Shown: positions 27,179-28,446 of the stretch, in pieces
Position numbering within the stretch: position 1 is the first letter of the stretch
Layout of the letters: each line of letters opens with the position of its first letter
Sequence record: PP925835.1
From: Escherichia phage Nernie
Length of the DNA: 64,000 nt
Direction: 5' to 3' (one strand)
The notes under the pieces: generated by a model
Databases searched by the model: none
Told to the model about the DNA's origin: nothing
What the model saw: only the letters and a program-made list of their open reading frames with translations
Made by a program: the position numbers and the translations under genes

Positions 27179-27430
27179 GTGGCAGGGTATCATCTGAAGG
27201 AGATTAGCAAAGAGGAATATGGTTCTGTTGCTAAGATTCAAGAAGAGCTTTATGAACTTCAAGATGCTATTGATCAAGATTGCAAGCTGATGCAACTTAT
27301 TGAGTTATCAGATATTGTAGGCGCTGTTGAAGGTGTTCTTGAACAGCATTTTCCTGGTATGACGCTTCAAGATTTGATCACTATGTCAAACATTACTAAA
27401 CGTGCATTCCGCAATGGAGGTCGATCATGA
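27179..27430 (+). CDS. MazG-like nucleotide pyrophosphohydrolase (putative)
   Basis: 83 aa, GTG start; helical protein with EE..EL.DA and a second acidic helix, consistent with the MazG/HisE fold. Confidence 0.35.
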   Translation: MAGYHLKEISKEEYGSVAKIQEELYELQDAIDQDCKLMQLIELSDIVGAVEGVLEQHFPGMTLQDLITMSNITKRAFRNGGRS

Positions 27431-27999
27431 ATGTTGCAGTAATAGCTCAAGCTATTGATTACTATGGTCGATTTGCACAAATGTTGGAAGTTCCATATCT
27501 CGTGGATGCTGATATACTGGCGTACACACTACCAGAAAATAAAGAGGATCGCCCATTAGGGCATCCTAACGGTAAATACTATGTAGCTAGTGCAGAACAA
27601 TCTTTCCTGCAAATGGAGAAGGATGGTTTTGAATTTGCAGTAGGTAATCCGTATATGGCACTAACACCATGTTACCGCACAGAAGAAAATTTAGATGATA
27701 CCCATTTTAATATTTTCTTGAAATTGGAGTTGATTGAGTTCTACCCTGATGCTACAATTGAAGAGTATGCTAACTCTATGCGCTGTTTCTTCTCTACTTA
27801 TTATGGAGTTAAAACATATTTAGTACCCACTAATATTGGGGTTGACGTAGAGGATGAATATGGTTTAGAATTAGGTTCATTCGGTATGAGGGAGTCTCCA
27901 AAAGGTCATCCTTATATCTATGCAACAGGTATTGCGGAGCCTAGGGCTTCACTGGCAATAAACCGTGTTGTAAATAAGATTCAAAGCATTAGCAAATAA
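27427..27999 (+). CDS. hypothetical protein; possible minimal class II aminoacyl-tRNA-synthetase-like core
   Basis: TPCYRTEE resembles class II motif 2 (fRxE) and GIAEPRASLAI resembles motif 3; weak. Confidence 0.3.
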   Translation: MNVAVIAQAIDYYGRFAQMLEVPYLVDADILAYTLPENKEDRPLGHPNGKYYVASAEQSFLQMEKDGFEFAVGNPYMALTPCYRTEENLDDTHFNIFLKLELIEFYPDATIEEYANSMRCFFSTYYGVKTYLVPTNIGVDVEDEYGLELGSFGMRESPKGHPYIYATGIAEPRASLAINRVVNKIQSISK

Positions 28000-28011
28000 G
28001 AGGAGAATAGA

Positions 28012-28446
28012 ATGTCTATTGTGACACAAATGAAAGCAGATCGTATCTTAGCACGTACAACCGATAAGGGTGCTTTTGCTTTGTTAACTAATATTATTGG
28101 TGAGTTTGACCTTGCTCGTACTCAAAAGGCAAATCTGAATAAATCAGAAGACGATATTATGATTAACATTGTTAAGATTGGTATTGCACACGCTAAAGAG
28201 GAACTAGACTCGCTTAAGAAAGTTAATGCCTCCATTAGCAAGTGTGAGCGAGCTATGCGTGATATCACCACTCTGGAAAAATATTTGCCAGAAATGCTAT
28301 CTGAAGATGATCTTCGAGCTATTGCTGAAGAATTTGCCTTGACAGGCAAGAAAATGCCAGATATGATGAAACACCTTAAAGCAGAGTATCCGAATCAATA
28401 TGATGGAAAACTTGCTTCTACCATTGCAAAAGAAATTTTAAACTAA
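28012..28446 (+). CDS. GatB/YqeY-domain protein
   Basis: Helical protein with YqeY-like ...EKYLP..LSEDDLRAIA... pattern. Confidence 0.5.
   Translation: MSIVTQMKADRILARTTDKGAFALLTNIIGEFDLARTQKANLNKSEDDIMINIVKIGIAHAKEELDSLKKVNASISKCERAMRDITTLEKYLPEMLSEDDLRAIAEEFALTGKKMPDMMKHLKAEYPNQYDGKLASTIAKEILN

Follow-up and report, generated by a model that had tools for sequence, protein, structure and literature searches.

[quoted passage not shown] A second point of reference is the anti-TIR defence protein Atd1 of Pectobacterium phage PcCB7V, a protein with a MazG-like catalytic domain that came from the ORFs flanking phage nucleotidyltransferases (NTases) (10.1101/2022.06.09.495361). Atd1 was assayed alone and was active: it hydrolysed ppGpp with a Km of about 50 uM, but neither rNTPs nor cGG. 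In cells it reduced the level of (p)ppGpp and gave protection from TIR-STING and retron-TIR, i.e., from TIR-dependent abortive infection (10.1101/2022.06.09.495361). A MazG-like fold alone is no proof that ppGpp is the substrate, since a cyanophage MazG reportedly does not hydrolyse ppGpp (PMC6850273).

Here, a 64,000-nt stretch of Escherichia phage Nernie (PP925835.1) was analyzed, which is called the window and from whose start all positions are counted. Three consecutive genes on the + strand are relevant: an 83-aa protein of the all-alpha HisE/MazG nucleotide pyrophosphohydrolase type (27179..27430, GTG start; the partner), a 190-aa minimal SerRS-derived class II aaRS catalytic core without tRNA-binding domain (27427..27999, ATG start; the core) and a 144-aa YqeY/GatB-tail-like helical protein (28012..28446), a lineage-specific neighbour outside the conserved module. 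An earlier note on this DNA had listed the latter two ORFs and both were found where it had placed them; the 83-aa ORF, which overlaps the core start, was absent from that note. As read from the window sequence, the Shine-Dalgarno-like AAGGGGG (27167..27173, + strand) ends 5 nt before the partner GTG at 27179 and shares two bases with the stop codon of the helicase gene (27166-27168), namely the last two of that codon. The junction between partner and core (27416..27430, + strand) has the layout of translational coupling, with GGAGG at 27416-27420 and the core ATG (27427-27429) overlapping the partner TGA (27428-27430) as ATGA. Among related loci, this 4-bp overlap is the modal arrangement of the two genes (20 loci). 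The window gave no matches in Rfam and tRNA scans.

The earlier note had read TPCYRTEE (residues 80-87) and GIAEPRASLAI (residues 168-178) of the 190-aa protein as similar to motifs 2 and 3 of class II aaRS and had regarded the protein as a stripped-down enzyme of this type. The present analysis supports this: the resemblance is not a matter of chance, and the fold, the three motifs and the active-site residues of an adenylate-forming class II core were all found. Single-sequence searches of Pfam, NCBIfam and PDB with the core returned nothing significant, and profile and structure methods were required. A profile of 39 family sequences matched class II aaRS chains in 34 out of 34 PDB matches, the best being Aquifex SerRS (E 4.3e-5); the matches comprised SerRS, AspRS and PylRS, and none was HisRS or HisZ. 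Moreover, the core has the antiparallel beta-sheet catalytic fold of class II aaRS, and TPCYRTEE aligned with motif 2 (TPCFR268SE) and GIAEPRASLAI with motif 3 (GSGLAVGR397) of E. coli SerRS.

Conservation was scored over 195 core members with pairwise identity down to 30%, and all of the following blocks lie on the + strand. The motif 1 region E21-V-P23-Y-L-V (27487..27504) aligned with YVP196YLV of E. coli SerRS, P23 being present in 190 members. The V-A-S55-A-E57-Q-S-F block (27583..27606) corresponds to the SerRS 'PTAE' motif (T237-A-E239), and S55 and E57 occur in 195/195 sequences. The same holds for R84, F97, K99 and E101 of motif 2, T80-P-C-Y-R84-T-E86...H93...F97-L-K99-L-E101 (27664..27729), which map to R268, F287, K289 and E291 in the alignment to SerRS. 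E148-L-G-S151-F-G-M-R155 (27868..27891) corresponds to E355-I-S-S358-C-S, the Mg2+/ATP-binding strand of SerRS; E148 and S151, mapped by motif position, are found in 194 of the 195 members, as are T167 and R173 of motif 3, Y165-A-T167-G-I-A-E-P-R173-A-S-L-A-I (27919..27960), the counterpart of SerRS N-G-S391-G-L-A-V-G-R397. The arginines of motifs 2 and 3 are the 'arginine tweezers' of class II enzymes (PMC8821087), and both are kept in the core family (R84, 195/195; R173, 194/195). Likewise, the SerRS-type active-site positions TAE, E291, E355/S358 and S391/T380 have their equivalents in S55, E57, E101, E148, S151 and T167. Taken together, the equivalents of the adenine-stacking, Mg2+-binding, serine-binding and arginine residues of SerRS (R84, R173, F97, E148, S151, E57, E101 and T167) are present in 194-195 of the 195 sequences; their functional roles are taken from T. 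thermophilus SerRS structures. Judged by these residues, the core is apparently a very small but active copy of the SerRS catalytic core, which would still be fully equipped to bind ATP and Mg2+ together with a small hydroxy amino acid, serine being the likeliest, and to form an aminoacyl-adenylate and PPi. With 175-200 aa and intact catalytic residues, the family ranks, to our knowledge, with the smallest class II enzymes of the synthetase type in nature.

By contrast to full-length SerRS, the core is without every known tRNA-binding appendage: the N-terminal coiled-coil arm that recognizes the variable arm of tRNASer is absent, and the motif-2 loop, through which SerRS touches the acceptor stem, is not of full length, with 12 residues between R84 and F97 as compared to 18 from R268 to F287 of the E. 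coli enzyme. In the Colossusvirus lineage the core is fused to a nucleic-acid-binding HhH domain similar to alpha-CTD, and beyond this HhH domain no added domains were found on extended partner or core ORFs. Canonical tRNA charging by the core is unlikely. In databases the core is labelled inconsistently as 'histidyl' or 'seryl tRNA synthetase', the PHROG label being 'histidyl tRNA synthetase'. Identity with HisRS or HisZ was rejected by similarity and by the lack of an anticodon-binding domain or a HisG partner, and the core is almost certainly neither a histidyl- nor a seryl-tRNA synthetase as labelled automatically.

The 83-aa partner carries an invariant N-terminal (G)YH motif (G3-Y4-H5, 27185..27193, with Y4 and H5 invariant across the partner family), an invariant EExxE metal-binding motif (E22, E23, E26; 27242..27256), which aligned with KKvxEExxE of HisE 2a7w, and an ExxD metal-binding motif (E42, D45; 27302..27313), in which both acidic residues are invariant; all three lie on the + strand. 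The residue between the latter two, S44, varies as S/A/C, a variation that is not expected of a phosphopantetheine attachment site. In Pfam PRA-PH/MazG models the partner scored 15.2 bits as compared to a gathering score of 21.3, and 27 of 35 family members matched PRA-PH at E<=1, the best at 2.6e-5; matches of the partner profile to HisE structures in PDB were marginal (E 0.08-0.7). The EExxE...ExxD metal motifs on a helical bundle, which characterize the MazG/HisE superfamily, are present, and the partner is closer to HisE than to MazG. This MazG/HisE-type pyrophosphohydrolase probably belongs to the Atd1 family of (p)ppGpp pyrophosphatases.

The assignment to Atd1 is based on a comparison with PcCB7V. 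The PcCB7V NTase listed in Table S1 of the preprint is QQG33502.1 (10.1101/2022.06.09.495361), and the only MazG/HisE-like ORF flanking it is QQG33500, with which the Nernie partner shares 50% identity along its entire length. By elimination, Atd1 is very probably QQG33500, the preprint text being without an accession for Atd1. As Atd1 is active on its own, the core would be dispensable for ppGpp hydrolysis in vitro.

Clustered at 50% identity, the core family falls into about 1,600 clusters; it was found in at least 272 sequenced phages with hosts including E. coli, Acinetobacter, Caulobacter, Pectobacterium and Microcystis. Cellular homologs were limited to 15 loci among 185,579 species genomes, all of them in phage-looking MAG bins or on tiny contigs; the family is phage-restricted. 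Of 82 core loci, 79 contain the partner, which lies on the strand of the core and may precede or follow it, and the phage taxon breakdown matched for core and partner (272 and 260 phage records, respectively). Furthermore, the two are fused in 5 of the 82 loci, in 9 of 194 representatives and in 3 of 15 MAG loci, and in 15 natural fusions without linker the Tyr of the partner YH motif follows the motif-3 Arg of the core by 9-13 residues. All-vs-all clustering of 4,716 ORFs revealed no third conserved gene, and a Pfam census of the 144 nearest neighbours was heterogeneous; no conserved gene in the vicinity encodes a HisG-type partner, a phosphopantetheinyl transferase or another acceptor. Clusters spanning 19 and 13 loci in this analysis were antisense shadow ORFs. 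A literature search found no study describing the core family or the pair.

The constant partner of the core is the upstream 83-aa gene and not the YqeY gene. The neighbour at 28012-28446 does belong to the YqeY family, as the earlier note had suggested (Pfam PF09424, 30.3 bits with a cutoff of 27; B. subtilis YqeY 1ng6, E 1e-4), but the functional unit with the core that this note had in mind did not hold: a YqeY homolog adjoins the core in only 2 of the 82 loci, both from the closest relatives, and YqeY homologs in 151 phage records have a host and taxon spectrum largely unlike that of the pair. YqeY was rejected as the partner of the core on these two grounds; it is a genus-specific neighbour that stands on its own. 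Since the constant partner is instead a MazG/HisE-type pyrophosphatase, the pair gives the impression of an anti-host enzyme in two parts rather than of one that charges tRNA. The same note had connected the core with a nucleotidyltransferase at 53150. Its ORF matched phage 'nucleotidyltransferase' PHROGs (E 2e-34), so that the name stood, albeit without a Pfam match; the connection did not, as the ORF is 25 kb away and nothing was found that links it to the pair. In other phages, RlaP-type NTases occur in the vicinity of the pair, and the 53150 ORF is not similar to these. RlaP lies close to the pair in 12 and a CCA-adding enzyme in 5 of the 82 loci, in PcCB7V a CCA-NTase and Pth are close by, and tRNA arrays surround the pair in several jumbo phages (loci L029, L031, L046, L058 and L062). 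A tRNA gene was located within 5 kb of the pair in 17 of 75 loci, compared to 16-20 expected under a generous null, i.e., without significant enrichment overall; on contigs of at least 100 kb there were 9 such cases as compared to 4-6 expected (P 0.02-0.16).

Following these observations, we tentatively propose that the proteins encoded at 27179-27430 and 27427-27999 may constitute one two-subunit phage anti-alarmone enzyme, the subunits being joined in one polypeptide in some phages; we hold this to be possible rather than probable. The core would form Ser-AMP, as its invariant residues suggest, and this adenylate would subsequently react, or the core would cooperate, with a nucleoside polyphosphate held on the partner in an AMP transfer of the Ap4A/ApppGpp type, a step that is speculative. 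Such transfer is a tRNA-independent side reaction of SerRS, and Belrhali et al. reportedly observed in 1995 that SerRS makes Ap4A from seryl-adenylate without tRNA. A nucleotide is proposed as acceptor because the core has no tRNA-binding module and the nucleotide site of the partner would be only about 10-30 residues away from the motif-3 Arg; AMP transfer to a nucleotide is speculative and is argued from chemical plausibility. The partner would then split the pyrophosphate bonds of the alarmone, as was reported for Atd1 alone, and the infected cell would stay out of the stringent response and of alarmone-triggered suicide. Points against this proposal are the activity of Atd1 without the core, the HhH domain on the core of one lineage, and genes that point to tRNA instead, namely RlaP, CCA-adding enzyme and Pth near some pairs and YqeY in this genus. 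Going further, and in our view unlikely, the pair might be an unrecognised two-component viral enzyme, in which a core of ~180 aa, smaller than any other natural class II synthetase core, performs seryl-adenylate chemistry on an alarmone that the Atd1-type subunit holds; (p)ppGpp might, for instance, be adenylylated or derivatised in another way. If true, this would be a new viral biochemical route that disarms the stringent response and alarmone-dependent abortive infection, and the core would be a natural 'urzyme-like' synthetase independent of tRNA.

The invariance of the SerRS-type amino-acid and ATP-binding residues would also suit a genuine minimal SerRS, or a low-specificity enzyme charging host or phage tRNA, to which tRNA binding is provided in trans, by YqeY in this genus and by other factors elsewhere. 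Deacylated tRNA would then decrease while the partner removes ppGpp and, since RelA is triggered by deacylated tRNA, both subunits would act in one pathway. The tRNA repair and recycling genes close to the pair in some lineages (RlaP, CCA-adding enzyme, Pth) and its position within tRNA arrays of several jumbo phages are in accordance with this, and a YqeY domain enhances the tRNA affinity of D. radiodurans GlnRS; however, it did so only in cis (PMC1865053), and YqeY adjoins the core in only 2 of the 82 loci. Moreover, the core has neither the coiled-coil arm nor another RNA-binding domain, its motif-2 loop is shortened, tRNA genes are not enriched near the pair overall, the conserved partner is a nucleotide hydrolase and no RNA binder, and the hosts already possess SerRS. 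We see only a small chance for tRNA charging of this kind.

Two further explanations start from the truncated paralogs. An amino-acid ligase with an acceptor that is neither nucleotide nor tRNA (a small molecule, a protein side chain or a carrier protein), similar to the aa:CP ligases, EpmA/PoxA or AsnA and with the 83-aa protein as acceptor or specificity subunit, would follow the known behaviour of truncated class II paralogs (PMC9437257) and would account for an adjacently encoded helical partner of about 80 aa that resembles a carrier protein. Nevertheless, the candidate serine S44 (ELSD) is variable while the MazG-type acidic residues are invariant, the core scored higher with bacterial-type SerRS than with methanogen-type SerRS or aa:CP ligases, and, as mentioned above, acceptor genes are not conserved nearby, which makes this reading rather improbable. 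The 83-aa protein itself was rejected as a carrier protein on account of the variable S44, the invariant MazG motifs and the HisE/MazG match. Alternatively, the core might be non-catalytic and, like HisZ, control, scaffold or oligomerise a HisE-like pyrophosphohydrolase. A 'histidyl tRNA synthetase' label adjoining 'phosphoribosyl-ATP pyrophosphatase', the greater resemblance of the partner to HisE than to MazG, the activity of Atd1 alone and the precedent of HisZ, an aaRS paralog serving as regulatory subunit without adenylation (PMC9437257), speak for it. Against it stand the invariant arginine tweezers and Mg2+/ATP ligands, a degree of conservation that leads one to expect catalysis rather than scaffolding, as well as the profile matches, among which there is no HisRS or HisZ, and the lack of a conserved HisG-type partner; we consider such a scaffold very improbable.

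Returning to the proposed anti-alarmone enzyme, the obligate partnership with a MazG/HisE-like pyrophosphatase, sometimes within one polypeptide, corrects the automatic synthetase labels. In the conflict of phages with their hosts, the pair offers a testable tie of the chemistry of amino-acid activation to the stringent response and abortive infection that are based on alarmones. The picture of Atd1 as a stand-alone ppGpp hydrolase would be incomplete if the partner is Atd1: natively it would form a heteromer with an adenylate-forming enzyme, and the substrate, product or regulation of Atd1 may be altered by this. Additionally, the size of the core bears on the minimum for a functional aaRS catalytic unit.

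Compared to the known systems, the core resembles bacterial-type SerRS in its motifs 1, 2 and 3 and in the signatures T..LP, (T/S)AE, TPC(F/Y)RxE, F-x-K-x-E, E-x-x-S and (S/T)-G-x-A-x-x-R. It differs in length (190 aa as compared to about 430 aa), in an identity of just 15-19%, in the missing coiled-coil arm and a motif-2 loop shorter by 6 residues, in trimmed inter-motif loops and C-terminal tail, in His93 in place of R283, and in being phage-restricted and paired or fused with a MazG/HisE-like protein. The aa:CP ligases (e.g., Bll0957), HisZ, EpmA/PoxA and AsnA are cellular proteins of about 275-330 aa, whereas the core is viral and has about 175-200 aa; it derives from bacterial-type SerRS, whereas the aa:CP ligases derive from methanogen-type SerRS and the other paralogs from HisRS, LysRS or AspRS, and its partner is a nucleotide pyrophosphohydrolase instead of a carrier protein, EF-P or HisG. 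The partner shares with HisE and MazG the helical fold and the K-x2-EExxE...ExxD metal site, and with HisE the N-terminal 'xY..(L/I)..kG' lead-in, but the invariant YH and T..F..G.R end motifs are peculiar to it and, unlike HisE, it is obligately coupled to an aaRS-like core outside the context of histidine biosynthesis. With QQG33500 it shares the size class and the EExxE/ExxD catalytic motifs. In PcCB7V, partner and core genes are split by an insertion of roughly 1 kb, and whereas the preprint treats Atd1 as a stand-alone protein and does not mention the SerRS-like gene (10.1101/2022.06.09.495361), this gene is its companion in 79 of the 82 loci analyzed here.

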